A DNA stretch of 64,000 nucleotides from a virus (taxonomy: Duplodnaviria; Caudoviricetes). A program made the position numbers and the translations under genes. This document shows positions 50,228 through 62,707 of this stretch, one piece after another. The notes below the pieces were generated by a model. It saw only the letters and a program-made list of their open reading frames with translations. It had not been told where the DNA came from and searched no databases. Location of the stretch: positions 1-64,000 of IMG/VR virus record IMGVR_UViG_3300014039_000024; one strand, given 5' to 3'. Position 1 is the stretch's first letter. The number at the start of each line of letters is the position of its first letter.

Positions 50228-50258
50228 CCCACTCGCACCAGAGAAGGGGGTCTGTATT

Positions 50259-50390: not shown

Positions 50391-50406
50391 AAGAGAGGAA
50401 AGAATT

Positions 50407-50766
50407 ATGAAAAACATCATCAACTATATGCTTGCTATTGCACTTCTTATCAGTGCTACTATGTTTGTATCTCACAACCAGACTACCGAAGCGTGTGAAG
50501 AAGCGCCGCAGTCATATGACCTTTCAGTCATTGATAATTGGTGCGGCGCTGGCACTGAAAAGGGAAGCATTCGTTTCGTGGGTGCAGAAGTCGAATCCCG
50601 AAACGGGGACGTTATCACACTGCTGGACGAACAGGGCAACCTGTGGAAAGTCGAGCATATGAACATTGATGACAATGACTTCTTGTTGCTGTGGATAAAT
50701 GACAATGATACATATGATGATTTTTCAGATGATGTTATCATTAAGGTATGGAGAGAAGCTTATTAA
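50407..50766 (+). CDS. 119-aa secreted/membrane-anchored acidic protein
   Basis: GAGGAA RBS; N-terminal signal-like MKNIINYMLAIALLISATMFVS. Confidence 0.75.
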   Translation: MKNIINYMLAIALLISATMFVSHNQTTEACEEAPQSYDLSVIDNWCGAGTEKGSIRFVGAEVESRNGDVITLLDEQGNLWKVEHMNIDDNDFLLLWINDNDTYDDFSDDVIIKVWREAY

Positions 50767-50782
50767 GCTTCTCTCTTCATTT

Positions 50783-50838
50783 TTCATTTTGATTCATAAA
50801 TATTCATACATATTCATTGCATATTCATACATATTCAT
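50783..50838 (+). repeat. Helically phased TTCAT/ATATTCAT direct repeats
   Basis: ATATTCAT at 50800, 50810, 50821, 50831; TTCAT also ending at 50787 and 50797 (10-11 bp period). Confidence 0.8.
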
Positions 50839-50843
50839 TTGAG

Positions 50844-50925
50844 CGGCGCGACGTGGGCCGCGGCGCGCCGAGTTTTGCAATAGGCAAGTTGCACAAAAAT
50901 TTTTAGATGAATTTGTGCATTATGC
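50844..50925 (+). repeat. Early-arm element copy 2
   Basis: 27-nt hairpin CGGCGCG/CGCGCCG at 50844-50870; TGCACAAA-14-TTTGTGCA at 50890-50919. Confidence 0.8.
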
Positions 50926-51012
50926 CAGTCACCTTTATACACCCGAAAAATGAATATTTATACATGAATATTCATACAGCCCTGATGAATAAATATTTTT
51001 TTCAAAAACCTA

Positions 51013-51040
51013 TTGACATTCAGCTCAAAAGTGGTATAAT
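51013..51040 (+). promoter_or_regulatory. Sigma-A promoter
   Basis: TTGACA-16-TATAAT with TG extension. Confidence 0.75.
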
Positions 51041-51072
51041 AGTAGTATCAAAAGAAAAGGAGATACACCATA

Positions 51073-51369
51073 ATGACTAACACCGAATTCCTCAAGACCC
51101 TCTCGCTCGAAAAAACGCGCCTCGAACACGAACTCATCACTGCCACAGAAAAGGCCGATAACCTCGATACGGTGGAAGCGCTTGCATGGACTGCGGTTAT
51201 TACCATGGAGCACGCGCCAGAAGAAGAATACACCCGTGAACAATGCGAAGCGCTGTATGATGCCTATGAACTGGCAATACGCGCAAGCGAAGAGCAAGCC
51301 GACTACGTAGAAGAAATTGAAAATGCAATTGAAAAAATCAAATCGTTAATAGAAATGTACGAGGACTAA
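51073..51369 (+). CDS. 98-aa acidic coiled-coil protein
   Basis: AAGGAG RBS; own promoter and terminator. Confidence 0.8.
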   Translation: MTNTEFLKTLSLEKTRLEHELITATEKADNLDTVEALAWTAVITMEHAPEEEYTREQCEALYDAYELAIRASEEQADYVEEIENAIEKIKSLIEMYED

Positions 51370-51388
51370 ACCTCGTACATTTTTTTTA
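51355..51388 (+). terminator. Rho-independent terminator overlapping stop codon
   Basis: ATGTACGAGG/CCTCGTACAT stem plus T-run. Confidence 0.8.
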
Positions 51389-51397
51389 TAAATGGTA

Positions 51398-51426
51398 TTG
51401 ACAAATGCCCTGTTATCTGCTACAAT
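51398..51426 (+). promoter_or_regulatory. Sigma-A promoter
   Basis: TTGACA-17-TACAAT with TG extension. Confidence 0.8.
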
Positions 51427-51458
51427 ATAAGTACAGTAAAGAAAAGGAGATAACAACA

Positions 51459-51587
51459 ATGTATGAATTCGAATTTATCAACAAAATCACTAACGAGCAT
51501 GACATTCGGCAATCGTTATACTGTAAAGCCCCGGACCTCGGTCCGGATTGGGAGCTTGTCTTTACAGAGTATGTGGAGGAGTATTAA
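51459..51587 (+). CDS. 42-aa acidic peptide
   Basis: AAGGAG RBS; MYEFEFINKITNEHDIRQ... Confidence 0.65.
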   Translation: MYEFEFINKITNEHDIRQSLYCKAPDLGPDWELVFTEYVEEY

Positions 51588-51588
51588 A

Positions 51589-51693
51589 ATGAGTGTACAT
51601 GACGGTTTAGTTTTACTTTTCATTTACCTTGCTACAATCGGCGCGGGCGCGCTGATTGAATGGGCAGAAAACAAGTTGAAAAAGAGAAGTTAA
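51589..51693 (+). CDS. 34-aa single-TM peptide
   Basis: GGAGGAG RBS; MSVHDGLVLLFIYLATIGAGALIEWAENKLKKRS. Confidence 0.65.
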   Translation: MSVHDGLVLLFIYLATIGAGALIEWAENKLKKRS

Positions 51694-51721
51694 AAAACTT
51701 CTCTTTTTTTACAAAAAATAC

Positions 51722-51750
51722 TTGACATTTTCCGCGGTTTGTGGTATTAT
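51722..51750 (+). promoter_or_regulatory. Sigma-A promoter
   Basis: TTGACA-17-TATTAT with TG extension. Confidence 0.75.
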
Positions 51751-51798
51751 AATTTCAGAAAGAGGAAGGATACCTCACAAACCAGAAAGGCTAATTCA

Positions 51799-51960
51799 AT
51801 GACTACTATCAAGACTCTTCTCGACGGCGTTCTCCCTGTCAAGCCCCTGTCCTATGTCCTCGGTGATGACTGGACGTATCTTTACTCCGACACCTACAAG
51901 GGTGTGGAATTTGACGTCCACGCCTGCATGAACGGCGAGGTCGTCGCGGTGTTAAATTAA
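51799..51960 (+). CDS. 53-aa hypothetical protein
   Basis: GAAAGG RBS; followed by AAGGG/CCCTT terminator. Confidence 0.7.
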   Translation: MTTIKTLLDGVLPVKPLSYVLGDDWTYLYSDTYKGVEFDVHACMNGEVVAVLN

Positions 51961-51996
51961 GGGTTGAAAAGCCCTTAATTTTTTTTACAAAAACTC

Positions 51997-52025
51997 TTGA
52001 CAAATCCAGAAGTAAGTGCTATGCT
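51997..52025 (+). promoter_or_regulatory. Sigma-A promoter
   Basis: TTGACA-17-TATGCT with TG extension. Confidence 0.7.
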
Positions 52026-52055
52026 ATAGATACAATAAGAAAGGGGATAGAAACC

Positions 52056-52313
52056 ATGAAGACTTACAACATTCTCACTATCGAACCGCCTTGCTCCGAC
52101 CAGAAGCTCGCCGGTAAATTCAATGTCGCTGATAATGAAAACTTCCTCGACCGATTAGAGGAAACGCTTTACATTCTCTTTGAATTAGAGCCGATGTTCC
52201 GCTATTGGAGACAAGACTTTCTCAAAAACCTGTCCACTTGCTTTACTTACCACTTATGCGAAAATTTCCGCGTAGAAAAGCACAGCAACGAAATTGTTAT
52301 TTATGAAATTTAA
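52056..52313 (+). CDS. 85-aa hypothetical protein
   Basis: AAGGGG RBS; own promoter and terminator. Confidence 0.75.
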   Translation: MKTYNILTIEPPCSDQKLAGKFNVADNENFLDRLEETLYILFELEPMFRYWRQDFLKNLSTCFTYHLCENFRVEKHSNEIVIYEI

Positions 52314-52358
52314 GGGCGAAAACGCCCTTATTTTTTTGAAAAAATCTGAAAAAAACTA

Positions 52359-52386
52359 TTGACAAACCCCAAATCTATGGTATAAT
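52359..52386 (+). promoter_or_regulatory. Sigma-A promoter
   Basis: TTGACA-16-TATAAT with TG extension. Confidence 0.75.
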
Positions 52387-52416
52387 AAGAGTATAAAAGG
52401 AAAGGGGATAGACCAA

Positions 52417-52578
52417 ATGACTATCGAAGAACTGAGTACAAAGCTGACTGAATGGATTGACCATTATGGAATCACTGAGGAATCCATGAACGATTTCGCA
52501 AACACATATGCGACCTCATATGAGGAATATAACGCCATCTGGGAAGAAATCTTGAATCCACTTTTGGAAAACAATTAA
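52417..52578 (+). CDS. 53-aa acidic protein
   Basis: AAGGGG RBS; MTIEELSTKLTEWIDHYG...ILNPLLENN; below ORF-track cut-off. Confidence 0.7.
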   Translation: MTIEELSTKLTEWIDHYGITEESMNDFANTYATSYEEYNAIWEEILNPLLENN

Positions 52579-52590
52579 AAATTTGAAATG

Positions 52591-52628
52591 AAAATTCAGC
52601 GGATTACATAAAAATCCGCTGAATTTTT
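52591..52628 (+). terminator. Bidirectional-type terminator
   Basis: AAAATTCAGCGGATT/AATCCGCTGAATTTT. Confidence 0.75.
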
Positions 52629-52644
52629 ATGCACCTTATCCCGC

Positions 52645-52773
52645 ATATTCATTTGGCCGGCCGTGCGCGACTGGCGCGGCCGGAATTTGCTGTCAATAAG
52701 CCATTTGCACAATTTTTATGGCGAAAGTTTGTGCATTATACCAATAGACAAAATCCCGTATGTGTGCTATACT
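52645..52773 (+). repeat. Early-arm element copy 3
   Basis: ATATTCATTTG, 27-nt hairpin CCGGCCG/CGGCCGG (52657-52683), TGTCAA, TGCACAA-16-TTGTGCA, promoter TAGACA-17-TATACT. Confidence 0.85.
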
Positions 52774-52823
52774 GTAATCACAGTAAGGGAAGGAAAACCC
52801 ATCAAACCGGAAAGGGAAAACGC

Positions 52824-53132
52824 ATGATTAACATTCGTTCTATTCGCAAGCTCGCTGACAATGATGGCCTGACGCTTAAATATGGCAAGGTCGTTCGTTA
52901 CAAGTCCGGCTGGCAAGTCGCCACCGAGGGCGTGGAGTGTGCGACCGCACGTGAAGCTATTAACGCGGTCAAAGAATATGGTGGCAACTGCGGCGTCTGG
53001 TTCGCAAATGGTATCTATTATATCGACCGTTCCAAGAGGGTCCAGACTAAAAAGGTCGCACTTGCCATTGGTCAGGCGCATAACCAAATCAGCGTATATG
53101 GCTGGGCTCGTGGCAATCTGGCTTATTGCTAA
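52824..53132 (+). CDS. 102-aa hypothetical protein
   Basis: GAAAGGG RBS before MINIRSIRKL; upstream part of the ORF call lies in the repeat element. Confidence 0.75.
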   Translation: MINIRSIRKLADNDGLTLKYGKVVRYKSGWQVATEGVECATAREAINAVKEYGGNCGVWFANGIYYIDRSKRVQTKKVALAIGQAHNQISVYGWARGNLAYC

Positions 53133-53139
53133 AAGAATT

Positions 53140-53179
53140 GCATATAGGGCTTGACAAATCGAGCCCTATATGCTACAAT
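53140..53179 (+). promoter_or_regulatory. Promoter with -35 inside a 12-bp inverted repeat
   Basis: GCATATAGGGCT-TGACAAATCG-AGCCCTATATGC; TTGACA-17-TACAAT. Confidence 0.8.
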
Positions 53180-53214
53180 ATGAATATCAAATGAAAGTGA
53201 AAGGGGACTCCAAA

Positions 53215-53484
53215 ATGGAAATTAAATATGCTCATGAGATGGCTGACAAAGCCAAAACTGCCCGCAAAAATAAGCGCGCAAAGGACAACGCGGTCGCCCG
53301 CGTATATATCGAAGAACATCTGATGAAAGATATCGAAGCGGCCGCGGACAAAGGCGAAAATACACTCTACCGTTGCCTCGTTGCCATCGAGGATGAGGCA
53401 GTTAAAGAAGCTGTCAAGGGTGTTATGCGCAACTACGGCTATGATGCCACATATACGAACGGGATTCTTTCTCTGTCGTGGTAA
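53215..53484 (+). CDS. 89-aa hypothetical protein
   Basis: AAGGGG RBS; terminator 53488-53515. Confidence 0.75.
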   Translation: MEIKYAHEMADKAKTARKNKRAKDNAVARVYIEEHLMKDIEAAADKGENTLYRCLVAIEDEAVKEAVKGVMRNYGYDATYTNGILSLSW

Positions 53485-53527
53485 ATAAAGAGGGGAAAAT
53501 TTTCCCCTCTTTTTTCAAAAATACCTC

Positions 53528-53556
53528 TTGACAAATATATGCAAGCATGATATAAT
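53528..53556 (+). promoter_or_regulatory. Sigma-A promoter
   Basis: TTGACA-17-TATAAT with TG extension. Confidence 0.85.
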
Positions 53557-53587
53557 ACAAGTATAATAAAGGAAAGGGGAAACTACA

Positions 53588-53944
53588 ATGAATAGAGATA
53601 TTTATAACATCCTAAAGAAAACTATGGCGTCCGGTATTCTTTCACCTATGGATTTGAATACTGCGGAACGCGCTTGCGAAAAGTATGAAAGAAATTTAGA
53701 GGACGCCCGCAAAGAACGCGAGTATCAGTCACAGCGAATGGTTAAGCTCGTCTATGAACTGCTCAATGACGCGGGTAAGCCCATCACACCGACTGAAATG
53801 CAGTTTATGGCGTTTAAGAAGTATGGCTATGAGTACGCCAATGGCAAATTCACTTGGTACTGTATGCAGTTATTCTTCGACCGTGAACTCAAACGCGAAC
53901 CCCGAGGGAATAAAGTTTATTATTCTATTCGAGAAAAAGAATAA
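53588..53944 (+). CDS. 118-aa protein with C-terminal winged-helix-like domain
   Basis: LLNDAGKPITPTEM..ELKREPRGNKVYYSI resembles wHTH wing. Confidence 0.6.
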   Translation: MNRDIYNILKKTMASGILSPMDLNTAERACEKYERNLEDARKEREYQSQRMVKLVYELLNDAGKPITPTEMQFMAFKKYGYEYANGKFTWYCMQLFFDRELKREPRGNKVYYSIREKE

Positions 53945-53954
53945 AAAAATAAGA

Positions 53955-53991
53955 AAAGGGGCTTGACAAAAGCCCCTTTCTTTGCTATACT
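53955..53991 (+). promoter_or_regulatory. Promoter with -35 at hairpin apex
   Basis: AAAGGGGCTT-GACAA-AAGCCCCTTT; TTGACA-17-TATACT. Confidence 0.8.
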
Positions 53992-54021
53992 TAATGTATC
54001 AAAGGAGAGGGGAATAAAAAA

Positions 54022-54093
54022 ATGGAATGTCCTTATTGCGATGAAAAGTGCGGAACTCATGCTCAATGTATAAAGTGCGGAAAGGGAAATTGA
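54022..54093 (+). CDS. 23-aa Cys-rich micro-ORF
   Basis: GGAGAGGGG RBS; MECPYCDEKCGTHAQCIKCGKGN. Confidence 0.5.
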   Translation: MECPYCDEKCGTHAQCIKCGKGN

Positions 54094-54094
54094 A

Positions 54095-54439
54095 ATGAAT
54101 ACAGAATTTCTAATTGTAGGTGGAATCTTTAGCGCAGTTATCAGTTTATTTGTGATGCTTATTTGTTGGTGCAACATGGATAAGCACCGTCCAGTAGTAA
54201 GAATCCTAACTGGTATTCTTATTTCATGTGCTATTGGTTATGCGCTTGTTGGGTCTGTTTTTTTGGAGCGCAGTGCCGATGAAAAAGCATGGAATAATGG
54301 TTATTGCTCTATCTGTGGAAATGAGATGAAATTTGTGAATGCTTCTCATGGCAGACATGGGACAGTTTATTATTATTGGTATTGTGATAAATGCGGGCAC
54401 ACATTAGAATTAACGTCTAATTTCAGAAAGGAAAATTAA
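54095..54439 (+). CDS. 114-aa membrane protein with C-terminal Zn ribbon
   Basis: Two hydrophobic helices; CSIC..CDKC. Confidence 0.75.
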   Translation: MNTEFLIVGGIFSAVISLFVMLICWCNMDKHRPVVRILTGILISCAIGYALVGSVFLERSADEKAWNNGYCSICGNEMKFVNASHGRHGTVYYYWYCDKCGHTLELTSNFRKEN

Positions 54440-54440
54440 C

Positions 54441-54647
54441 ATGAACGAAAAGAGTATTCCTCAGACCTTGAAAGAACAAGCAGAGGCCATCGAAAAGCTG
54501 GCACAGAGAATTTCAAAAGAAAGTCAGGCACTGCCAGACATGGAAGACCGCATTAGTGGAATGGAAATAGCGGATGCCCTGTTTTCATTTCAGTCAAAAA
54601 TGCGATATGAATTCAAATGGATTGCGGAATCCATGTGGGATGAATAA
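54441..54647 (+). CDS. 68-aa helical protein
   Basis: GAAAGGA RBS; terminator 54650-54686. Confidence 0.7.
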   Translation: MNEKSIPQTLKEQAEAIEKLAQRISKESQALPDMEDRISGMEIADALFSFQSKMRYEFKWIAESMWDE

Positions 54648-54696
54648 TTATTCGGGTGAGATAACCAAATCTCACCCGAATTTTTTGTTTCATTTG

Positions 54697-54883
54697 ACTA
54701 TTGACAAAACCATCTGGAAGGTGTATAATTCAGCCGGCCGCCAACGTACGCTGCGGCCGGAAATTCCAGTATATCACAGCTCCAGCAATTTGTCAAGCAA
54801 AAAATTGAAAAAAGTTACACAAATTATTTTTCCCAAATTTGTGCATTTTACCAGTAGACAAAACGCTATGAGCGTGTTATACT
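54697..54883 (+). repeat. Early-arm element copy 4 (complete)
   Basis: TTGACA-17-TATAAT (54701-54729); hairpin CCGGCCGC/GCGGCCGG 54734-54760; antisense promoter; CACAAATT/AATTTGTG; TAGACA-17-TATACT (54855-54883). Confidence 0.9.
54768..54796 (-). promoter_or_regulatory. Antisense sigma-A promoter in element 4
   Basis: Minus-strand TTGACA-17-TATACT with TG extension. Confidence 0.75.
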
Positions 54884-54918
54884 ATAATTGTTCCAAGGGG
54901 AACGGAAAGGTAAGGTAA

Positions 54919-55131
54919 ATGAAAATGACCAACTACGATATCCATGCTTTCGTCAAGACCCAGCTTCTTTATGCCGAGCAGATGCCCAGTGATGCCGAGC
55001 TCTTCAAACACAACGCATATGGCGCTGTCCAGTGGGAACTGTACCGCACCAACGACAAGGCACTTGAAAACAAGTGGAATGACGTATATGCGCCCAAGTT
55101 TGATAAAATTATCAAAAATTATTGGGCATAA
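54919..55131 (+). CDS. 70-aa hypothetical protein
   Basis: AAGGTAAGG RBS. Confidence 0.75.
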   Translation: MKMTNYDIHAFVKTQLLYAEQMPSDAELFKHNAYGAVQWELYRTNDKALENKWNDVYAPKFDKIIKNYWA

Positions 55132-55165
55132 GGGGTTGACAAAACCCCTTTCCCCATGGTATAAT
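55130..55165 (+). promoter_or_regulatory. Promoter with -35 at hairpin apex
   Basis: AAGGGGTT-GACAA-AACCCCTT; TTGACA-18-TATAAT. Confidence 0.75.
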
Positions 55166-55202
55166 ATCATCAATCCAAGAGAGAAAGAAAGAGGTAAATC
55201 AA

Positions 55203-55544
55203 ATGCTTATCAAAATGTCCAAACACGCCACGCAAGACCGCATCGACCGCTTGTTCTTCATCTATGATAATATCGGCATTGGTGAAGAGTATATCAACAG
55301 CGTAGAGGATGACGTGCTTTATACTATTACAACGACTGGCGTTCTGCTTGTGCGCAGTCCAAAAGATGGAACACTGATTACCGCCTATATCGCGGACATT
55401 GACAAAATCACCGCGATTTGGAGAAACAAGCACGGTGAGCGTCCTATGCCTGACAATCTTTACAAGCGCGTCCTCGCAAATGCGTTCTTTGACAGAATGT
55501 GGAACAAAATTGAAAAGGATGGTAAGAAAAATGTTGTTCGGTAA
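55203..55544 (+). CDS. 113-aa protein, possible BECR/RelE-like RNase fold
   Basis: SKHATQDR..R and TLITAY motifs. Confidence 0.5.
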   Translation: MLIKMSKHATQDRIDRLFFIYDNIGIGEEYINSVEDDVLYTITTTGVLLVRSPKDGTLITAYIADIDKITAIWRNKHGERPMPDNLYKRVLANAFFDRMWNKIEKDGKKNVVR

Positions 55545-55890
55545 AAAAGAAAAGAAATTCAATCCCTACGAGAACCACGCGGACGAACTTCTTTATGAGC
55601 TTTGGGACGTGGAACGCCACCTTGAAGAGTGTGTTGAAAAGTCAATTGCGCGGATAGGCGTTGTGTCTTTATATCCAGATGGGCCTGACCGCAGAAAAGC
55701 ACTATCTGATGCCGATGAAGCTAAACATTCCTTGCTTGTTGCTATTGGAGCATTTGATACATCCCGCATGGTTTACAATGATTATGTAAACAAGCATCAA
55801 GAAAACTTTGATAATCCGCGGAAGCCGTGGAAACACACAAGTCATGAAACCATTGAGCGGGTTTATAAGAATTTTTATAAGAGAGGTTAA
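55531..55890 (+). CDS. 119-aa hypothetical protein
   Basis: Start overlapping previous gene; MLFGKKEKKFNPYEN... Confidence 0.7.
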   Translation: MLFGKKEKKFNPYENHADELLYELWDVERHLEECVEKSIARIGVVSLYPDGPDRRKALSDADEAKHSLLVAIGAFDTSRMVYNDYVNKHQENFDNPRKPWKHTSHETIERVYKNFYKRG

Positions 55891-55895
55891 GTAAA

Positions 55896-56135
55896 ATGAA
55901 AATTACTGTTAAGAATAATAATAAACTTGTTCCGTTTGAAGATATCCCTATCGGTATGGTTTTCAAAGACCCTGTAAGTCGTGATATGTATTATATTAAG
56001 GCCGAATCGGTTCTTGATGAAAACACCGATGAAGAAGAACTAAACTCTTTCTGTGTTAGCAATAACACTTTTAACTGTTTCGGTCCTCAGTATATGGTTC
56101 AGCCCACCTACGGCGCAGAATTGATTATTCCCTGA
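55896..56135 (+). CDS. 79-aa hypothetical protein
   Basis: GAGG RBS, TGA stop. Confidence 0.75.
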   Translation: MKITVKNNNKLVPFEDIPIGMVFKDPVSRDMYYIKAESVLDENTDEEELNSFCVSNNTFNCFGPQYMVQPTYGAELIIP

Positions 56136-56245
56136 TAAAACCGAACATTTGTTCGCGTTTATTTCTCCCCCTTTCCAATGGCTTTGGCAGTTGAGCCTAT
56201 CAACTGCCACCCTTTCCAAAAATTATTTTTAAGGAGAATAGAAAA

Positions 56246-56425
56246 ATGGAAAATAAGGAAATGCTTAGCGAAGTGGTTGAAAAGGTCTGTGCGATGGCTC
56301 GTTATGGTATTCAGAAGCGTTTCGCTCCCGATGAAGCAGGGGCAAAGGAAATGATTGAGCGTGTTTCGCTCATTGAGGATAAGCTCGTTCCTATTCTCAT
56401 CGACCTTGAAGCTGTAGAAAGTTGA
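56246..56425 (+). CDS. 59-aa hypothetical protein
   Basis: AAGGAG RBS; MENKEMLSEVVEKVCAMARYG...; terminator 56429-56458. Confidence 0.7.
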   Translation: MENKEMLSEVVEKVCAMARYGIQKRFAPDEAGAKEMIERVSLIEDKLVPILIDLEAVES

Positions 56426-56468
56426 ATGAAAAATCACCCAATTTGGGTGATTTTTTTTGTTTAATTTC

Positions 56469-56622
56469 ACTATTGACAAAGTTCCTTAAATGTGATAAAA
56501 TCGCCGCGCGCGAACGGCTGTGGCGCGCCGAGTTTTTGTCAAGATGTAAGTTCAACAAATTTTTGTACGATTTTTTGGTTATTCTGCCAATAGACAAAAT
56601 TCCCAAAATCTGGTAATATAGT
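56469..56622 (+). repeat. Early-arm element copy 5 (antisense -10 missing)
   Basis: TTGACA-17-TAAAAT (56473-56501); imperfect CGCCGCG/CGCGCCG hairpin; TGTCAA directly after it; TAGACA promoter at 56591. Confidence 0.8.
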
Positions 56623-56649
56623 ATCATAAAAGGAAAGGGAGAAATCAAA

Positions 56650-57087
56650 ATGAAAAAGTACAGTGTTTATAAGTATAATAACCGCACATTCCGCGTTTAT
56701 GTGTCAGAGTGTGGATATGGCTTGGTTGATGTGGTCGTGCGCGAGGTCGTACACCCTGAGCGCAAGTTTTTCAAAACGAGATATTTCTATCAGAATATCT
56801 ACTGCACCGAAGATTTTGAAGAAATCAGCGATATTGAGCGGTCTGCCATAGCATGTGGTTTTGCTTTGGAAGAACAGCATCAGGCTTATGAAGCTAAAAT
56901 GGAAAAGGTGGTGTCAAGAATGATGTATGAAGAAGTTAATACCTATATACTCGAAGATTGGCTGAGCGCATGGGTAGAAACGTTCAATGATTGCGCGTGT
57001 TGTCCCTTGTCCGACCAGTGCGACCGCGAGGGCGGGATTGATAGTATAGTATGTGCAGATAGATTATTAGAGAAATTAAAAGAGTAA
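56650..57087 (+). CDS. 145-aa protein with C-terminal Cys cluster
   Basis: AAGGGAG RBS; CACCPLSDQC..C. Confidence 0.75.
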   Translation: MKKYSVYKYNNRTFRVYVSECGYGLVDVVVREVVHPERKFFKTRYFYQNIYCTEDFEEISDIERSAIACGFALEEQHQAYEAKMEKVVSRMMYEEVNTYILEDWLSAWVETFNDCACCPLSDQCDREGGIDSIVCADRLLEKLKE

Positions 57088-57102
57088 ATTAAAAATTTCT
57101 TA

Positions 57103-57131
57103 TTGACAATAATATTATAATATGATATTAT
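57103..57131 (+). promoter_or_regulatory. Sigma-A promoter
   Basis: TTGACA-17-TATTAT with TG extension. Confidence 0.7.
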
Positions 57132-57160
57132 TACAATAGAAAAAGGAAAGGGTGATATCT

Positions 57161-57634
57161 ATGAATACAATTCTTTTATTCGCGGGATGCACCGCAGTTA
57201 ATGTGATTCTATCAACCATTAAAAGCATCGTAACTGTCAAGGGCGGAAAGTTTATTGCATCTCTGATGAACGCTTTGACTTATGGATTTTATTCCTATGT
57301 CATTATTTTAACTTCCGCAGATGGTATGAGCGTTTGGGCAAAAATGGGCATTACTGCCGTCTGTAATTTCGTGGGCGTTTACCTTGTCAAGTGGATTGAG
57401 GAAAAAGCCCGCAAGGATAGGCTGTGGGAGATTCGAGCGACCATTCCCGCAAACAATACACAGGAAGTTCATTCTGCATTGAAGGACGTTCCACACAATT
57501 ATATTCTTAATGTGGGCAAGTATACTGTATTTAATATTTACTGTGCCACACAAAAAGAAAGTGCTATGGTCAAGCCGGTCTTAAATCAATATGGGGCAAA
57601 GTATTTTGTTTCCGAAAGTAAAAATCTTGATTAA
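57161..57634 (+). CDS. UPF0316 (DUF5698/DUF2179)-like membrane protein, 157 aa
   Basis: NVILSTIKSIVTVKG..ASLMNALTYGFY..CNFVGVYL; three TM helices plus soluble C-terminus. Confidence 0.7.
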   Translation: MNTILLFAGCTAVNVILSTIKSIVTVKGGKFIASLMNALTYGFYSYVIILTSADGMSVWAKMGITAVCNFVGVYLVKWIEEKARKDRLWEIRATIPANNTQEVHSALKDVPHNYILNVGKYTVFNIYCATQKESAMVKPVLNQYGAKYFVSESKNLD

Positions 57635-57648
57635 GGGGAGAAATTAAA

Positions 57649-58101
57649 ATGAAAGCTACTGGTATTATTCGCAGAATTGATGACCTTGGACGTGTAGTTA
57701 TTCCGAAAGAAATTCGACGCACTCTTAAAATTCGCGAGGGAGACCCACTTGAAATTTTCTTGGGAGAGCAGAATACAATCTGTTTCAAGAAGTATTGTGT
57801 CCTCGGTAAGATGGATGATGAAGTCCTGCGAGTAGCGGTTGAGATGGCAAGAAAGTCAAATCTTGCACCTATTGCAATTTATGACCGCGGAGAAAAGTTG
57901 AAAGGAATGGAGAACTTCCCATCTTACGTCCCCGACGAATGGAGAAATTATTCTGAACCTTTTCTTTATAATGCCACTTATGGTGTTTACCCCATCATTA
58001 CGAACGGTGATTTTGAGGGCTATGTTGTTTGTGACCACAGTAGTATTAGCGTTGAAATGGGAATGATTGCTCGCTATCTGAGTGTTGCAATTGAGGAATA
58101 A
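57649..58101 (+). CDS. AbrB/SpoVT-family transcription regulator, 150 aa
   Basis: MKATGIIRRIDDLGRVVIPKEIRRTLKIREGDPLEIF matches the SpoVT/AbrB N-terminal domain closely. Confidence 0.9.
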   Translation: MKATGIIRRIDDLGRVVIPKEIRRTLKIREGDPLEIFLGEQNTICFKKYCVLGKMDDEVLRVAVEMARKSNLAPIAIYDRGEKLKGMENFPSYVPDEWRNYSEPFLYNATYGVYPIITNGDFEGYVVCDHSSISVEMGMIARYLSVAIEE

Positions 58102-58103
58102 CT

Positions 58104-58289
58104 ATGAGAGTTGAAAAGAAATATCAGGTTGACTATAACGGGACGAACCCTTGGGGTCAAAGTTATGATAATCGAATGCTTTTTGATTCCGAGGAAGAAG
58201 CAGATGTTTTTATCGAAAAGCTGAAACAGGATGAAAATATCTATCAGGCATTCAAAACTGTTACAACCTGTTTCTATCACTTACATTAA
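58104..58289 (+). CDS. 61-aa hypothetical protein
   Basis: GAGGA RBS; terminator 58294-58332. Confidence 0.7.
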   Translation: MRVEKKYQVDYNGTNPWGQSYDNRMLFDSEEEADVFIEKLKQDENIYQAFKTVTTCFYHLH

Positions 58290-58342
58290 AAATATTTTGA
58301 GACGAGATAACCAAATCTCGTCTCAAAATTTTATCTATTTTA

Positions 58343-58527
58343 CCTATTGACAAATAGGCTCAGGTATGATAAAATGGCCGGCCGTTTGCGTCTGCCACGG
58401 CCGGAATTTCAATTATACCACCATCCCAACAATTTGTCAATAGACAATTTGAATAAAAATCTCGCACTTAAATTTCCCGATTTTGTGCATTTTGCCAATA
58501 GACAAATCAATACTGACCTGTTATACT
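58343..58527 (+). repeat. Early-arm element copy 6 (complete)
   Basis: TTGACA-17-TAAAAT (58347-58375); hairpin CCGGCCGT/ACGGCCGG 58378-58404; antisense promoter; TAGACA-17-TATACT (58499-58527). Confidence 0.9.
58412..58440 (-). promoter_or_regulatory. Antisense sigma-A promoter in element 6
   Basis: Minus-strand TTGACA-17-TATAAT with TG extension. Confidence 0.8.
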
Positions 58528-58559
58528 ATAGATACAGTAAAGGAAAGGGGAACAACAAA

Positions 58560-59057
58560 ATGAAAATTATTTACATCAAGTCTCACGTGCGGATTCGCCG
58601 GTCTATCAATTTGGATATGGACGGCACTATTGCTGACCTTTACGGCGTTAAGGACTGGCTTCCGCTTCTCCGTTCGGAAAATCCTAGGCCTTACCGAATG
58701 GCAATCCCTATGTGCGACATGACCGCGTTGAATGAAGTGTGCGAACTTCTCCGTGCGGACGGCTGGGAAATCAATATCATTACTTGGCTTTCTAAGGATT
58801 CGAGCGAGGAATACAAAGATGCCGTTCGTAAAGCAAAGCGCGCTTGGTTGAAAGAGCAGGGTTTCCACTACGACCATTTTCACGGCATTCAGTATGGCGC
58901 GACCAAAGCCGACAGTGTGCGCGACCGTTATGATTTTTCTATCCTTGTTGATGATAACAAAAAAGTCCGTGATGGTTGGCACATTGGTTCAACTATTGAC
59001 CCAACCGCTGAAAATTTGGTTGAAGCGCTGAAAGAAATTTTGGAGAAAGGGGCTTGA
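58560..59057 (+). CDS. HAD-superfamily 5'(3')-deoxyribonucleotidase-like phosphatase, 165 aa
   Basis: LDMDGTIADL (DxDxT), ITW, K, ILVDD motifs; AAGGGG RBS before 58560. Confidence 0.85.
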   Translation: MKIIYIKSHVRIRRSINLDMDGTIADLYGVKDWLPLLRSENPRPYRMAIPMCDMTALNEVCELLRADGWEINIITWLSKDSSEEYKDAVRKAKRAWLKEQGFHYDHFHGIQYGATKADSVRDRYDFSILVDDNKKVRDGWHIGSTIDPTAENLVEALKEILEKGA

Positions 59058-59082
59058 CAAGCCCCGCTCCATGTGTTATAAT
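59049..59082 (+). promoter_or_regulatory. Promoter with -35 at hairpin apex
   Basis: GGGGCTT-GAC-AAGCCCC; TTGACA-17-TATAAT; upstream TGA stop lies inside the -35. Confidence 0.8.
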
Positions 59083-59109
59083 CAATGTATCAAATGAAAG
59101 GGTGATAAA

Positions 59110-59253
59110 ATGATGCCTTACTTTTGGCTTACTCTTGGTGTTCTCGCAAAAGTGACTGGACAGACTGAGGGCGGTAACTATTACTATGAAACCGTTGTCT
59201 CCAAAGAAATTGGACTCGTAACCGCAGAATGGGTTCATAGCCATTTGATGTGA
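59110..59253 (+). CDS. 47-aa hypothetical protein
   Basis: GAAAGGGTG RBS; MMPYFWLTLGVLAKVTG... Confidence 0.55.
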   Translation: MMPYFWLTLGVLAKVTGQTEGGNYYYETVVSKEIGLVTAEWVHSHLM

Positions 59254-59262
59254 GGTAAAAAA

Positions 59263-59577
59263 ATGTTGTACTTAATGATGGATGATTTAGCCAACAGTCA
59301 TTTGGTAAAAGTTGGTTATTCCGATGGCACTAAAAATCTCGCAAAGCGTCGCAAAAGCTATTATAGCCATAATCCAAAAGCAATAATGCGTAGTACCTGT
59401 GCGGGCAGTCGAGACATGGAAAATACTTGTCATCAGACTTTAAGTGAGTTAGGTATCCGCATTAGTGGTACAGAATGGTTTGAAGTGCCAGCGGATTTGT
59501 TTGATTCTCTTTACTATAAAGGAATGGCATTTTTTAGACCAAATCATAAGCCGATTCATTTCTTAGAAGAATTTTGA
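59263..59577 (+). CDS. T5orf172/GIY-YIG-like protein, 104 aa
   Basis: LYLM..LVKVGYS..R..ME..H..GTEWF. Confidence 0.75.
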   Translation: MLYLMMDDLANSHLVKVGYSDGTKNLAKRRKSYYSHNPKAIMRSTCAGSRDMENTCHQTLSELGIRISGTEWFEVPADLFDSLYYKGMAFFRPNHKPIHFLEEF

Positions 59578-59591
59578 AAAGGGGAAAAATT

Positions 59592-59846
59592 ATGAAAGTA
59601 AATTTTGGCGACAAAGGCAAGCTCCAAATTATGAATATTTTGTGCGGTGGCACGTTCACCACGCAAAGGAGCGAGGGCGGAACGGGAATGTATCTCAAAG
59701 TTGATGGCAACAACAAAGCTCCGTTTATTAAATCAAGGGGTTGGCAATTTTGTTATGCAGTCAATCTTGAAACGGGTCAGATTCGAGAATTTTCTCGTGA
59801 ACAGTTGGTTACCCCTGTTAAAACCGAAGTCAATGTAATTGACTAA
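59592..59846 (+). CDS. 84-aa hypothetical protein
   Basis: AAGGGG RBS; terminator 59857-59887. Confidence 0.7.
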   Translation: MKVNFGDKGKLQIMNILCGGTFTTQRSEGGTGMYLKVDGNNKAPFIKSRGWQFCYAVNLETGQIREFSREQLVTPVKTEVNVID

Positions 59847-59897
59847 TTTCAAAATGAAAATCTCCCCAAAAATGGGGAGATTTTTTTGTTTATTTTG

Positions 59898-60084
59898 ACT
59901 ATTGACACCGACCGGGGAATGTGATAAAATTGGCCGGTCGCCCACGCACGTTGCGACCGGAATTTACCATTATACACCCTGCCAGCATTTTTGTCAAGAG
60001 AAATTTTGCACAAATTTGATTATTTTCAGATCCCGAAACTTGTGCAATTTGTCAATAGACAAATCAATACTGACCTGCTATAAT
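59898..60084 (+). repeat. Early-arm element copy 7 (complete)
   Basis: TTGACA-17-TAAAAT (59902-59930); hairpin CCGGTCGC/GCGACCGG 59934-59960; antisense promoter; TGCACAA/TTGTGCA; TAGACA-17-TATAAT (60056-60084). Confidence 0.9.
59969..59997 (-). promoter_or_regulatory. Antisense sigma-A promoter in element 7
   Basis: Minus-strand TTGACA-17-TATAAT. Confidence 0.8.
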
Positions 60085-60089
60085 ACATA

Positions 60090-60205
60090 ATGTCAGGAGG
60101 AAAGAGTAAGACCTGCGGAAAGGCGGTTCACCTGACCATTGTACCAGAAGTCGGTGCGAAAGTCTCAAGCGTGGCGTGCCGAACAAACTTTCAAAAAAGT
60201 TTGAA
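60090..60205 (+). ncRNA. Candidate structured small RNA A
   Basis: Follows promoter 60056-60084, no RBS before the ATG at 60090; stems GTCAGG/CCTGAC and TCGGTGCG/CGTGCCGA. Confidence 0.4.
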
Positions 60206-60212
60206 AAACCCC

Positions 60213-60241
60213 TTGACAAATCGCTCATCCTATGGTACAAT
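60213..60241 (+). promoter_or_regulatory. Sigma-A promoter
   Basis: TTGACA-17-TACAAT with TG extension. Confidence 0.8.
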
Positions 60242-60272
60242 GAATACATCAAATGAGAGAGGTATAAACAAG

Positions 60273-60377
60273 ATGACTATTGAAGCTCGTCCACCGCCTA
60301 AAAAAATTCGCAAAAACCTATTGACAAACCCGCAAATCTATGATACAATAACTACATCAAAGACAAGGACAGTCTAA
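60273..60377 (+). CDS. 34-aa micro-ORF MTIEARPPPKK...
   Basis: Own promoter and GAGAGAGG RBS; runs across the next promoter. Confidence 0.4.
   Translation: MTIEARPPPKKIRKNLLTNPQIYDTITTSKTRTV
60321..60349 (+). promoter_or_regulatory. Sigma-A promoter
   Basis: TTGACA-17-TACAAT with TG extension. Confidence 0.8.
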
Positions 60378-60400
60378 AATACCAGAAAGGAATTGATACT

Positions 60401-60775
60401 ATGTCTACTTCTACTGTTAAGAAGCTCACCAAGCGCGACCGTTTCGAGGCTCTTCTCAAGATGACCGAGGTTCAGGCAAACCCTGATATGGTTGAGTTCA
60501 TCAACCATGAGATTGAGCTTCTCGCCAAGAAGAACGCGGGCGATAAGAAGCCCACAGCCAAGCAGATGGAGAATGACGCGGTGAAGCAGGTCATTCTGGA
60601 CGCCATGACCGAGAACGCGGGTAAGCTGTTCACTGTGACTGACCTGATTAAGAGCGTCCCCGAACTGGGGGATTACTCCAATCAGCGTGTTTCCGCTCTT
60701 CTGCGCCAGATGATTGAAGCGGGTGCTGTCGTTAAGACGGTCGATAAGCGCAAGTCTTATTTCTCCCTTGCGTAA
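60401..60775 (+). CDS. Winged-helix-like DNA-binding protein, paralog 1 (124 aa)
   Basis: FTVTDLIK..SNQRVSALLRQM..VVKTVDKRKSYF; terminator 60783-60812. Confidence 0.7.
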   Translation: MSTSTVKKLTKRDRFEALLKMTEVQANPDMVEFINHEIELLAKKNAGDKKPTAKQMENDAVKQVILDAMTENAGKLFTVTDLIKSVPELGDYSNQRVSALLRQMIEAGAVVKTVDKRKSYFSLA

Positions 60776-60825
60776 AGGGCAAGGGACAGGGGATAAAAAA
60801 ATCCCCTGTCCCGCATAAAAAAGTC

Positions 60826-60854
60826 TTGACAAATCCAAAAGTAAGCGTTATAAT
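60826..60854 (+). promoter_or_regulatory. Sigma-A promoter
   Basis: TTGACA-17-TATAAT. Confidence 0.85.
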
Positions 60855-60918
60855 ACTTATAGAGGTTGAGAGAACGATGGTAAACCTCAATCGAATTTTA
60901 TGAATGGAGACATACAAC

Positions 60919-61695
60919 ATGAGCATTGATAAGCGCAGAAACTACGGTATCATGTTAGATACTGAAACCGCGAACACTATCCAGCAGGGCGATAAACTGG
61001 ATATGTCGAACGTCTTGCCGTATGATTTTGGATGGGCGGTCATTGATTCCAAGGGCAACGTCTATGAAACTTATTCCTTTGTGAATCGCGACATTTTCTG
61101 CTATGAGCGCGACCTGATGCAGTCCGCCTATTACGCCGACAAGATTCCCCGCTATATCGAGGACATTGCGAACGGCACCCGAATCATGGCAGACCTATTT
61201 GAAATTCGACAGGCTTTCTGCGACTGCGTGGAACGCTATAATTGTTCTTTTGTGTGTGCTCACAACATGAGATTTGACCTTAATGCTTGCAACAATGCTC
61301 AGCGTTGGGACACGAAAAGCAAGTATCGCTATTTCTTCCCTTACGGGCTTGAAGTGTGGGACACTCTGAAAATGGCGCGACAGATTATCGGCAAGATGCC
61401 TACTTACCGCGATTATTGCGAACAAAACGGCTACAAGACTAAAAATGGACAGCTCCGCTTTACCGCAGAAATCCTTTACCGCTTTATTAGTGGTGAAGAA
61501 GAATTTGATGAATCGCATACGGGACTTGAAGATGTTCTGATTGAAGTTGAGATTTTGAAGTATTGTGTTCGTCAGCACAAGGCAATGGAAAAGTCTCTTT
61601 TCAAGAAACCAGAAACGGAACGCCCGCGCCCTACGGACTTCCAGCGGGAACTCATGCGAAACATTAAGGAAAATCCAATGGTAAACATGAGATAA
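60919..61695 (+). CDS. DEDDh-family 3'-5' exonuclease, ~258 aa
   Basis: LDTET (ExoI), AHNMRFD (ExoII), HTGLED (ExoIII); GGAG RBS favours ATG 60919 over 60904. Confidence 0.85.
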   Translation: MSIDKRRNYGIMLDTETANTIQQGDKLDMSNVLPYDFGWAVIDSKGNVYETYSFVNRDIFCYERDLMQSAYYADKIPRYIEDIANGTRIMADLFEIRQAFCDCVERYNCSFVCAHNMRFDLNACNNAQRWDTKSKYRYFFPYGLEVWDTLKMARQIIGKMPTYRDYCEQNGYKTKNGQLRFTAEILYRFISGEEEFDESHTGLEDVLIEVEILKYCVRQHKAMEKSLFKKPETERPRPTDFQRELMRNIKENPMVNMR

Positions 61696-61702
61696 AAAAA
61701 AT

Positions 61703-61743
61703 AGGGAACAGGGCTTGACAAGTCCTGTTCCCTGTGATATAAT
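61703..61743 (+). promoter_or_regulatory. Promoter with -35 at apex of 14-bp hairpin
   Basis: AGGGAACAGGGCTT-GAC-AAGTCCTGTTCCCT (one G.T pair); TTGACA-17-TATAAT. Confidence 0.8.
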
Positions 61744-61773
61744 AAGTACATCCAAAAGAAAGAGGTGTTTCCT

Positions 61774-62052
61774 ATGAACGCAAAACAAGTCCTTTTTGTA
61801 GACCCTAATGAGAATGACCCGCACATGGGTATTCTGATTGACCATGATTACATCATCTGCGCGGAATGCGGTGGCGTTTTTGAAGCTGATGAAGTGCTCA
61901 TCATTAAGACTTATGACTTTTGGGTCAACTTTGAAAATGAAATCGCGGACGAGCTTGACCTACTGACTGCTCAAACCATTGCAAAAGAATTGAATATCGC
62001 GGGCAAGTCAGGGCGCGATATTTGGGCAGAAAAAATTAAAGAAGAATTCTGA
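61774..62052 (+). CDS. 92-aa protein with CxxC
   Basis: GAGGTG RBS; ICAECGG; terminator 62054-62081. Confidence 0.75.
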   Translation: MNAKQVLFVDPNENDPHMGILIDHDYIICAECGGVFEADEVLIIKTYDFWVNFENEIADELDLLTAQTIAKELNIAGKSGRDIWAEKIKEEF

Positions 62053-62091
62053 CAAAAGGGAGAGAAATCTCCCTTTTTTTTGTTTATTTTG

Positions 62092-62277
62092 CCTATTGAC
62101 AAATGCGGATTTCTATGTTAAAATGGGCGGCCCGCGAACGCCCAACGCGGGCCGAATTCACCATTATACCACGCCCCGCCAATTTTGTCAAGAGAAAAGT
62201 TACATAAAAATGAAAAAAGTTTTTTCCCGTAATTTGGTTATTTTGTCAATTGCAATTCGTGGGCAATCTGTTATAAT
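62092..62277 (+). repeat. Early-arm element copy 8 (complete core)
   Basis: TTGACA-17-TAAAAT (62096-62124); hairpin CGGCCCGCG/CGCGGGCCG 62128-62154; antisense promoter; degenerate inverted repeat; TG-TATAAT at 62272. Confidence 0.85.
62163..62191 (-). promoter_or_regulatory. Antisense sigma-A promoter in element 8
   Basis: Minus-strand TTGACA-17-TATAAT with TG extension. Confidence 0.8.
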
Positions 62278-62282
62278 AGATA

Positions 62283-62365
62283 ATGTCAAGAGGGAATGAC
62301 ACTGAGGTAAACCACGGCAAGCCTATGTGGGACGGGTTCAAATCCCTTTAAGGACGCTTAAAAAA
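62283..62365 (+). ncRNA. Candidate small RNA B
   Basis: Follows the -10 at 62272; AGAGGGA/TCCCTTT closing stem, GGGTTCAAATCCC T-loop-like hairpin; no RBS. Confidence 0.35.
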
Positions 62366-62379
62366 AGTGAAATTCCCTC

Positions 62380-62408
62380 TTGACAAAACCCCGCAAGCGT
62401 GCTACAAT
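62380..62408 (+). promoter_or_regulatory. Sigma-A promoter
   Basis: TTGACA-17-TACAAT with TG extension. Confidence 0.8.
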
Positions 62409-62413
62409 AGATA

Positions 62414-62620
62414 ATGTCAAGAGGAAGTAGCCCAAGAAATCCGAGGGCGCGCGACTTCGAGAAAGTATAGGAAGTAAACGTAATACACCACGTAGTAAAG
62501 CCAAACGTTGAACGCGAAAGTGAGTTTGACTTGTCAGTTTGCGGATATGTCCGCAACGTTAAATAAGCAAACAAGACCTTATCCGTCAGGTCGGGGTTGT
62601 AAATCGTGTAAAAAGTTTGC
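62414..62620 (+). ncRNA. Candidate ~200-nt multi-hairpin RNA C
   Basis: Own promoter, no RBS; stems GAAGT/ACTTC, GCCC/GGGC, AACGTTG/CAACGTT enclosing GC-GAAA-GT, GA-CTTG-TC and GCGGA/TCCGC, then GACC/GGTC. Confidence 0.5.
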
Positions 62621-62628
62621 AAAACCTC

Positions 62629-62657
62629 TTGACAAACTTCTCAAAGTGTGGTACACT
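62629..62657 (+). promoter_or_regulatory. Sigma-A promoter
   Basis: TTGACA-17-TACACT with TG extension. Confidence 0.75.
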
Positions 62658-62707
62658 TAATACATCAAAAGGGTAGCGACCTACCGCCAAAGAAAGGAAT
62701 TGATACT

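Follow-up and report, generated by a model that had tools for sequence, protein, structure and literature searches.

The early region of a large uncultured phage, represented here by the first 64,000 nucleotides (the window) of the 85,085-bp IMG/VR record IMGVR_UViG_3300014039_000024, carries a repeated G+C-rich hairpin that is exactly 27 nt long and polar. It forms the constant core of a module at operon boundaries, consisting of a terminator, a forward promoter (P+), the hairpin, and a facing backward promoter (P-). The hairpin is a genuine signal under selection; we document here its structure, its length and polarity, its geometry relative to the promoters, and its conservation. We tentatively favor, while holding it short of probable, the reading that it is an RNA punctuation hairpin placed at transcript 5' ends and operon borders and probably read by a partner. 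The face-to-face sigma-A promoters and the operon borders provide the decisive context, which was absent from the sequence-only reading in which the hairpins were first noticed.

A polar hairpin of constant length

An exhaustive hairpin scan of the window returned exactly the six 27-nt GC hairpins that the sequence-only reading had listed, with the arms quoted there and with loops of 13, 13, 11, 11, 11, and 9 nt. One additional copy had been overlooked (copy 4 in Table 1); it retains the 27-nt frame, with a single mismatch at pair 2. An eighth copy is located immediately beyond the end of the window, at genome positions 64238-64264, and neighboring copies are 1.56-2.19 kb apart. In the 16-kb early region, 7 GC hairpins have a stem of at least 7 bp, where Markov simulations predict 0.18, and 27-nt hairpins arose only 2 times in 100 such simulations. 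A covariance model built from relatives and run over the 64-kb window recovered seven plus-strand copies, with E values from 2.5e-10 to 6.5e-4, and nothing else. The predicted stability of the hairpins is -12 to -22 kcal/mol.

Each unit consists of a 7-bp outer stem (CSGSSCG), a 13-nt center, and the complementary 7 nt, flanked by GG and ARTTTY. Pairs inside the outer stem are optional and are the source of the apparent 7-9-nt arms: the outer stem leaves the 13-nt center, which inner pairs reduce to a loop of 3-7 nt in some copies (1 and 2) and not in others, while a C12-G17 pair is found in 52 of 74 sequences. The arms had been described as different but complementary and the loops as unrelated; the arms indeed co-vary, but the loops turned out to share a semiconserved A11-C12-G13 and C16-G17. 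In this genome, C12-G13 is present in 6 of 8 copies. Among the unique copies of relatives, CG occupies positions 12-13 in 131 of 199, ACG positions 11-13 in 75 of 199, and CG positions 16-17 in 80 of 199, whereas the mirror positions hold the motif in only 8 and 5 copies (5/199 for the mirror of ACG). The asymmetric center and the GG and ARTTTY flanks thus make the element polar, and all 95 of the 95 orientable copies in loci anchored by the sigma gene were aligned with the direction of the early genes.

To follow the element beyond this genome, we collected ~180 related IMG/VR loci through a protein-anchored search and a pattern search for the promoter plus left arm. A length of exactly 27 nt was found for 203 of the 486 unique G+C-rich hairpins in these relatives, any other length being represented by 1-37. 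When copies were picked by the upstream promoter and left arm only, 91 of 116 unique copies had a 27-nt hairpin and 2 had one of 26 nt; when elements were defined by the flanks only (GG...ARTT), 73 of 78 were 27 nt, as were all 16 of the 16 flank-defined elements without a promoter on either side. Because these flank-picked, promoterless copies are also 27 nt, the length constraint belongs to the hairpin and not to the promoter spacing. In a complete 196-kb relative, all copies lie within one 16-kb early segment. Close relatives carry 8-10 copies and distant ones 1-2; the nearest named relative, phAss-1, has no copy of the strict pattern.

Strong covariation was observed at pairs 2-26, 4-24, and 5-23. 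At pair 2-26, G-C and C-G are almost equally frequent (33 and 34 sequences); the two states of pair 4-24 are found in 45 and 21 sequences, and at pair 5-23, C-G (49) prevails over U-A (14). Two-sided pair changes amounted to 90 cells, against 36.7 +/- 3.9 in shuffled data (0 of 500 shuffles reached 90), and the signal collapsed when the partners were slid by 1-3 columns. Up to three compensated pairs separate orthologous copies: the orthologues L149:6563 and L164:5795 show compensated changes at pairs 4-24, 6-22, and 8-20, and the copy at genome position 64238 differs from L105:8517 by a compensated change at 4-24, with an identical loop. The proposal that selection acts on pairing and length, that is, on shape, is borne out by these length and covariation counts; constant length and covariation both hold in the larger alignment across the ~180 loci.

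Ten positions are near-invariant among orthologues, C1, G3, C6, G7, C12, G13, C21, G22, C25, and G27, and include the fixed stem pairs C1-G27, G3-C25, C6-G22, and G7-C21. The remaining loop positions are free to vary, as are pairs 2, 4, and 5, which change together with their partners; the loops are not more variable than the neutral-looking flanks. Near-invariant bases among co-varying pairs form the pattern that would be expected of a specifically read hairpin. A double-stranded operator, on which a dimeric DNA-binding protein would occupy two CSGSSCG half-sites 20 bp apart center to center, would also demand a fixed linear spacing of the half-sites, and the element does lie inside promoter regions. 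A dimer, however, needs no complementarity between half-sites at positions 2, 4, and 5, where it is nevertheless present, and the center and flanks are asymmetric and the element polar; we therefore consider an operator highly improbable.

Boundary modules of terminators and facing promoters

In the window, five copies of the hairpin are preceded by a bidirectional terminator, which ends 47-52 nt before the hairpin, and then by a P+ (11-12 of 12 consensus matches) whose -10 element ends 2-4 nt before it. In four of these five, a P- follows, with its -10 element ending 7-8 nt after the hairpin (Table 1). The same distances recur over the 199 unique copies, the -10 element of P+ ending 2-5 nt upstream (mode 3) and that of P- 7-8 nt downstream: both promoters are present in 50 copies, P+ only in 51, P- only in 34, and neither in 64. 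The promoterless copies look like deletion derivatives that have retained the hairpin. The P- promoters are the only strong minus-strand promoters of the early arm. A terminator follows nearly every gene in the early region, and each next operon is driven by a separate gene-proximal promoter, which never carries the hairpin. The early arm is mosaic between relatives, and homology breakpoints accumulate at many intergenic junctions, modules included, without preference for the modules.

Table 1. Hairpins, promoters, terminators, and protein domains in the early arm (window coordinates)
Feature	Position	Strand	Details
Hairpin copy 1	50844-50870	+	27 nt, 7-bp stem CGGCGCG; 23.4 bits, E 6.5e-4; without adjacent consensus promoter
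Hairpin copy 2	52657-52683	+	27 nt, stem CCGGCCG extendable to 10 bp; -21.8 kcal/mol; E 1.1e-8; without adjacent consensus promoter
Terminator, module 3	54650-54681	both	terminator-like hairpin closing the upstream operon; predicted 3' end of the module 3 backward RNA
P+, module 3	54701-54729	+	TTGACA-17-TATAAT, 12/12; -10 ends 4 nt before hairpin
Hairpin copy 3	54734-54760	+	27 nt; E 4.2e-9
P-, module 3	54768-54796	-	TTGACA-17-TATACT; -10 ends 7 nt from hairpin
P+, variant module (copy 4)	56473-56501	+	TTGACA-17-TAAAAT
Hairpin copy 4	56504-56530	+	C-C mismatch at pair 2; 27.6 bits, E 4.5e-5; without backward promoter
MazE/AbrB-like (SpoVT-AbrB) DNA-binding domain	57649-58101		E 9e-10
Terminator, module 5	58294-58329	both	upstream of module 5
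P+, module 5	58347-58375	+	TTGACA-17-TAAAAT; -10 ends 2 nt before hairpin
Hairpin copy 5	58378-58404	+	27 nt; 43.3 bits on +, 13.5 bits on -
P-, module 5	58412-58440	-	12/12 matches; -10 ends 7 nt from hairpin
T5orf172/GIY-YIG-like domain	59263-59577		E 8e-7
Terminator, module 6	59856-59885	both	upstream of module 6
P+, module 6	59902-59930	+	-10 ends 3 nt before hairpin
Hairpin copy 6	59934-59960	+	27 nt; T-A at pair 5-23; E 2.5e-10
P-, module 6	59969-59997	-	12/12 matches; -10 ends 8 nt from hairpin
Terminator, module 7	62054-62077	both	upstream of module 7
P+, module 7	62096-62124	+	-10 ends 3 nt before hairpin
Hairpin copy 7	62128-62154	+	27 nt, 9-bp stem; E 3.4e-9
P-, module 7	62163-62191	-	12/12 matches; -10 ends 8 nt from hairpin

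A close published parallel is found in the PeSL cassettes of T4-type phages, in which a terminator stem-loop and a near-perfect TTGACA-N17-TATAAT host promoter are repeated between early genes (PMC2839356, PMC4122927). The modules described here share this repeat of terminator and near-consensus promoter and likewise punctuate, as intergenic units, a mosaic early region rich in small orphan genes. PeSL cassettes coincide with junctions at which related phages differ by insertion, deletion, or replacement; the homology breakpoints noted above include the modules without favoring them. PeSL cassettes, however, consist of a stem-loop plus promoter only: they lack a second hairpin downstream of the promoter, a promoter facing the first, and any co-varying element of fixed length. 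In the present modules, the most persistent part is the GC hairpin and not the promoter, and the phage is a siphovirus-type phage of Bacillota and not a T4-like myovirus. The terminator-promoter part thus matches PeSL, and what is new is the hairpin as persistent core, its invariant 7+13+7 length, and its polarity.

This likeness also brings in the possibility that the hairpin is a functionless palindrome hitchhiking in duplicated promoter-terminator cassettes of the PeSL type, its arms being matched by template-switch correction rather than by selection. Template-switch correction of quasi-palindromes is a mutational route that mimics compensatory change, and it could do so for the arm changes reported above. 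The whole 150-nt module is indeed a repeated paralogous unit, and PeSL-type cassettes spread and shuffle in phage early regions (PMC4122927). On the other hand, copies that lack the P+ and P- cores retain the 27-nt frame and perfect stems, template switching would tend to extend the palindrome into the center and not hold a 13-nt asymmetric center with ACG, near-invariant positions stand among neutral-looking ones, and the hairpin is conserved across relatives in which the neighboring sigma protein is only 71-97% identical. With these observations in hand, we regard a passive palindrome as very unlikely.

Other known systems resemble the module in single respects. IS10 pIN/pOUT (RNA-OUT) and P22 Pant/Psar are pairs of facing promoters over a few tens of bp, with overlapping 5' ends and a short RNA dominated by a stable hairpin. 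The promoters here also face each other over a few tens of bp, and the predicted RNAs overlap at their 5' ends, the short one again dominated by a stable hairpin, but in IS10 and P22 the overlap covers the ribosome-binding site that is controlled, whereas here it contains no start codon and the unit is repeated 4-8 times per genome. The REP/BIME elements of enterobacteria are polar G+C-rich extragenic palindromes of 21-65 nt with a GTAG head, and REPs stabilize upstream mRNA. The present element resembles them in being a repeated, short, polar, extragenic G+C-rich palindrome with compensated arms, found in many copies at operon ends and between cistrons; it differs in having no GTAG head and an exact length, and in being phage-borne and confined to one early segment. 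Neither the 85-kb record nor the complete 196-kb relative contains the Y1 (RAYT) transposase family PF01797; the controls were positive.

With its G+C-rich stem and U-rich 3' flank, aligned with transcription at an operon end, the element also recalls an intrinsic terminator. The 3' flank has the consensus A-R-T-T-T-Y, with T at 77-87% at positions +3 to +5, and the mean longest T-run after the hairpin is 2.8-4.1, depending on the context, against 6-8 T in the canonical terminators of the early region. The stem is thus not followed directly by at least 5-6 U, as in an intrinsic terminator, but by only about three U after two purines; the loop is 7-13 nt, or 3-7 nt where inner pairs form, against 3-8 nt in an intrinsic terminator, and the element lies 47-52 nt past a canonical terminator with 6-8 U. 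The promoters of the N4 virion RNA polymerase are hairpins conserved in sequence, with a 5-7-bp stem and a 3-nt loop, and depend on a giant virion polymerase. Both systems have short hairpins, read for their shape, in the early region of a phage, but the loops here are 7-13 nt, the early genes have sigma-A promoters, and no virion RNA polymerase was found, the giant open reading frame (ORF) at 22874-31138 being a tape measure protein.

Several further sequence patterns were seen around the modules. In module 6 alone, pairing is possible between the P+ spacer (CGACCGG) and the left hairpin arm (CCGGTCG; 59909-59940), which gives a competing 32-nt hairpin. The eighth module (genome 64206-64290) contains the palindrome CCGATCGG in the promoter spacer and again 5 nt after the hairpin; the pair is kept in the relatives L105, L133, and L139 and resembles operator sites bracketing a start site. 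The word TTTGTGCAWT (6 matches against 0.7 expected) stands just upstream of the gene-proximal -35 elements after hairpins (50912, 52728, 54838, and 58482, plus strand). In relatives, the same word, TTTTGTGCATTTTGCC, precedes the -35 element of P+, and its reverse complement follows the hairpin in promoterless modules; the word is possibly an UP-like element or a site for a regulator. In several gene-proximal promoters, the TTGACA is positioned in the loop or at the apex of a hairpin formed by the preceding terminator-like stem, as in GCATATAGGGC-TTGACA-...-GCCCTATATGC, and terminators and promoters overlap in this way at 53140-53173, 53955-53979, 59041-59075, and 61703-61733. The interval 62250-62650 has no credible ORF and contains two strong promoters (62250-62277 and 62380-62408), each followed by AGATAATGTCAAGAGG; the transcript of the first would contain a tRNA T-arm-like GGGTTCAAATCCC, while ARAGORN gave no tRNA and Rfam nothing, and small RNA genes are possible there. 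A small ORF or type I toxin gene after P- was also considered and rejected: the apparent M/L-K-K-V starts reflect similarity of the DNA motif, and no reading frame is conserved.

Proposed punctuation of early RNA and its alternatives

Start sites were predicted from standard sigma-A geometry, and we infer the active RNA form and its effects on stability and termination as well; a look-up of RNA sequencing runs containing a 10-kb stretch listed none. The early operons are transcribed by the host polymerase. As the -10 element of P+ ends 2-5 nt before the hairpin, the RNA should start within the left arm, at about hairpin position 3-4 and near the invariant G3, and its 5' end would be base paired, without an overhang. 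The P- RNA would start 0-3 nt before the complete hairpin and stop ~110 nt on, at the upstream bidirectional terminator; in the predicted folds of the backward RNAs, a 5' hairpin is followed by an AU-rich linker and the terminator, with z-scores from -3.5 to -8.1. The predicted starts of P+ and P- are ~25 bp apart, so that two polymerases should exclude each other. A 5' end capped by the hairpin would resist 5'-end-dependent decay (RppH, RNase J1, RNase Y), and on read-through RNA the complete hairpin with ARUUUY would form a second barrier after the canonical terminator.

The promoter geometry places the hairpin within a few nt of a predicted 5' end in 135 of the 199 copies, 64 having no promoter. 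As 5'-terminal stem-loops are known to stabilize mRNA, in ompA, papA, and Bacillus subtilis aprE (work listed in PMC3997798), by blocking 5'-end-dependent decay, we favor a role in RNA punctuation. The known stabilizers share with the predicted RNAs a stable hairpin at or near the 5' end. They differ in being leaders of single genes without a length constraint, whereas here the length is fixed at 27 nt, one third of the copies are promoterless, and another promoter serves the genes downstream. The constancy of its length and of certain bases suggests that the hairpin is also read by a protein.

A number of observations weigh against RNA punctuation. In 64 of the 199 unique copies, neither side has a consensus promoter, yet the length is still 27 nt and the pairs are compensated; a role at the 5' end thus cannot be universal. 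The downstream operons have their own gene-proximal promoters, so most mRNA would lack the hairpin. As a terminator, the element has a short U-tract, two purines between the stem and the U, and, at least in some copies, a long loop; a generic nuclease block or terminator would, moreover, need neither a fixed 13-nt center nor fixed bases. A wobble strand test gave 8 G-T (plus-strand) and 7 A-C (minus-strand) mismatches and hence no strand bias. Punctuation of RNA leaves the exact length, the fixed bases, and the promoterless copies unexplained, and these features point to a specific reader or to a role at the DNA level, both of which they fit better than a passive palindrome or a duplex operator.

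A specific reader would make the hairpin a docking signal on early RNA, on which a dedicated phage or host protein recognizes the 7-bp stem with its fixed pairs and the 13-nt loop, for processive antitermination (as in lambda N-boxB or HK022 put), directed processing, or the loading of a factor onto the polymerase just past the promoter. We consider this possible, although on balance doubtful. The length of the loop has remained fixed while most loop positions have changed, ten near-invariant positions stand among co-varying ones, and the element is polar and located directly after strong early promoters, amid terminators at nearly every gene, where control of read-through would make sense. 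Conversely, one third of the copies have no promoter nearby, a companion motif resembling boxA was not seen, and the invariant stem bases are all G or C and could simply reflect stability.

The sequence-only reading had postulated a structure-reading partner, and none was identified in our searches: the early proteins are nearly all orphans, and in a Pfam scan of 20 early ORFs, 16 had no match at E 0.01 and only two passed the curated cutoff (the two domains in Table 1), neither of them giving a candidate reader. The related suggestion that the variable loops serve as specificity or kissing-loop tags fared poorly, as the 15-nt centers find complements or copies of at most 8-10 nt in the 85-kb genome, just as shuffled centers do. 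Rfam gave no match at the gathering score in the 64-kb window, and module 7 at E up to 1 gave only noise.

Alternatively, the element may act as DNA, as a strand-specific single-stranded hairpin exposed in replication or transcription or as a cruciform, and be the target of a nuclease, recombinase, primase, or topoisomerase, marking, for instance, sites of priming or recombination every ~2 kb. The strict Watson-Crick pairing without wobble bias suits DNA as well as RNA, the promoterless copies may be poorly transcribed yet are conserved, the spacing of 1.6-2.2 kb is regular, and the early arm is mosaic between relatives. Copy 1, in addition, lies within an iteron-like array of ATATTCAT. Four tandem repeats of this word with a 10-11-bp period stand directly upstream of the hairpin (50800-50838), three more are found in both orientations 80-100 bp downstream (50950-50975), and one is located just before copy 2 (52645-52652); the window has 18 matches against 8.9 expected, and the array is possibly an origin or a regulator site.

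Against a role as DNA, the copies cluster in a single 16-kb early segment instead of being spread over the whole 196-kb genome, the element keeps to a position only a few nt from -10 elements, homology breakpoints fall at all intergenic junctions without preference for the hairpin, and this genome and the complete relative have no Y1/HUH transposase. The strict polarity of the element also disfavors the duplex cruciform that had been suggested as a target. Convergent transcription generates positive supercoiling, which disfavors cruciform extrusion. The convergent promoters of the modules would do the same, and a G+C-rich 13-nt center extrudes poorly. We judge a DNA-level role unlikely.

A more far-reaching reading is offered here as speculation, and we think it rather unlikely as it stands. 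The hairpin would be the address label of an undescribed transcription-punctuation system of large Bacillota phages, whose reader measures the 7-bp stem and 13-nt loop, either on early RNA as it emerges or on the DNA strand displaced, and decides between stop, pass, and protect at operon borders; the facing promoters would make each module a self-contained insulator that produces complementary, hairpin-capped RNAs.

The phage, its host, and the meaning of the module

The record divides into two arms. Bases 1-47.9 kb carry virion genes on the minus strand at 28-34% G+C, and from 48 kb onward plus-strand genes, mainly small orphan ORFs, follow at 40-44% G+C; the early arm (48000-64000) has 10-14 points more G+C than the late arm (1-48000) and the opposite GC skew. 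The late arm (1-47906, minus strand) is open only with TAG as a sense codon; 19 ORFs of at least 200 aa then result, among them ones of 2,564 and 2,754 aa, whereas table 11 gives only 5 ORFs of at least 250 aa. The capsid-like genes at 38180-39286 and 39304-40221 and the early genes are TAG-free. Neither a suppressor tRNA nor any other tRNA was found in the 85-kb record.

The late-arm genes include the portal, the terminase, and the 2,754-aa tape measure protein (22874-31138), while the other giant ORF (1111-8805) matches only families of unknown function. The giant ORFs had raised the idea of a crAss-like phage with a virion RNA polymerase, which we rejected because one of them is the tape measure gene; the capsid and sigma-factor relatives, phAss-1 and phages of Enterococcus, Bacillus, and Clostridioides, also speak against it. 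The last gene of the late arm (46851-47906, minus strand) matches phage sigma factors (phrog_5767; sigma-factor annotation in Enterococcus phages VRE9) and is likely to be the switch to late transcription. This homologue, located at the early/late boundary, has its own perfect sigma-A promoter (47959-47931, minus strand).

The nearest relatives of the capsid and sigma proteins are found in phAss-1, which belongs to the "code 15 clade" (PMC10607447), and in large phages of Enterococcus, Bacillus, Brevibacillus, and Clostridioides. On the strength of these relatives, the host is most likely a member of Bacillota, which agrees with the sigma-A-type promoters of the early arm: its 17 kb contain 80 sigma-70-type matches against 43.6 +/- 6.5 expected, including 13 perfect TTGACA-N16-18-TATAAT promoters, mostly with an extended -10 element. 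We describe the phage as a large, TAG-recoded, siphovirus-type and gut-type phage that is uncultured. Nucleotide searches of 50,697 GenBank phages gave no match. A scan of bacterial genomes with a degenerate pattern found mostly chance sites in G+C-rich genomes; true modules occurred only on short contigs, mostly in metagenome-assembled genome bins of Clostridia and two in Bacteroidales-type bins. As these contigs are probably phage fragments, the scan did not yield a firm host.

A weaker relative of the 27-nt element is present in a cultured distant relative, Enterococcus phage EF1 (MF001358, ~64.2 kb; L189:3059-3088). There, one TTGACA-N17-TAAAAT-GG promoter directly precedes a 16-nt GC hairpin, CGCTCG-CCAG-CGAGCG, in the same direction as the EF1 early genes, and the covariance model gives the hairpin 20.5 bits (E 0.004). 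Its presence in a cultured phage makes experiments possible.

The early regions of large uncultured phages consist mostly of orphan genes, and their regulation is little understood. The hairpin provides a compact and abundant cis signal from such a region, for which the comparative evidence is unusually clean (an exact length, pairs that co-vary, fixed bases, and strict polarity), and it shows how a lineage of TAG-recoded gut phages splits transcription by the host polymerase into ~2-kb units. Should there be a reader protein, the element could serve directly as bait for it; if the element works alone, the promoter-hairpin-promoter module would be a new natural operon insulator, usable as a part in Gram-positive synthetic biology.

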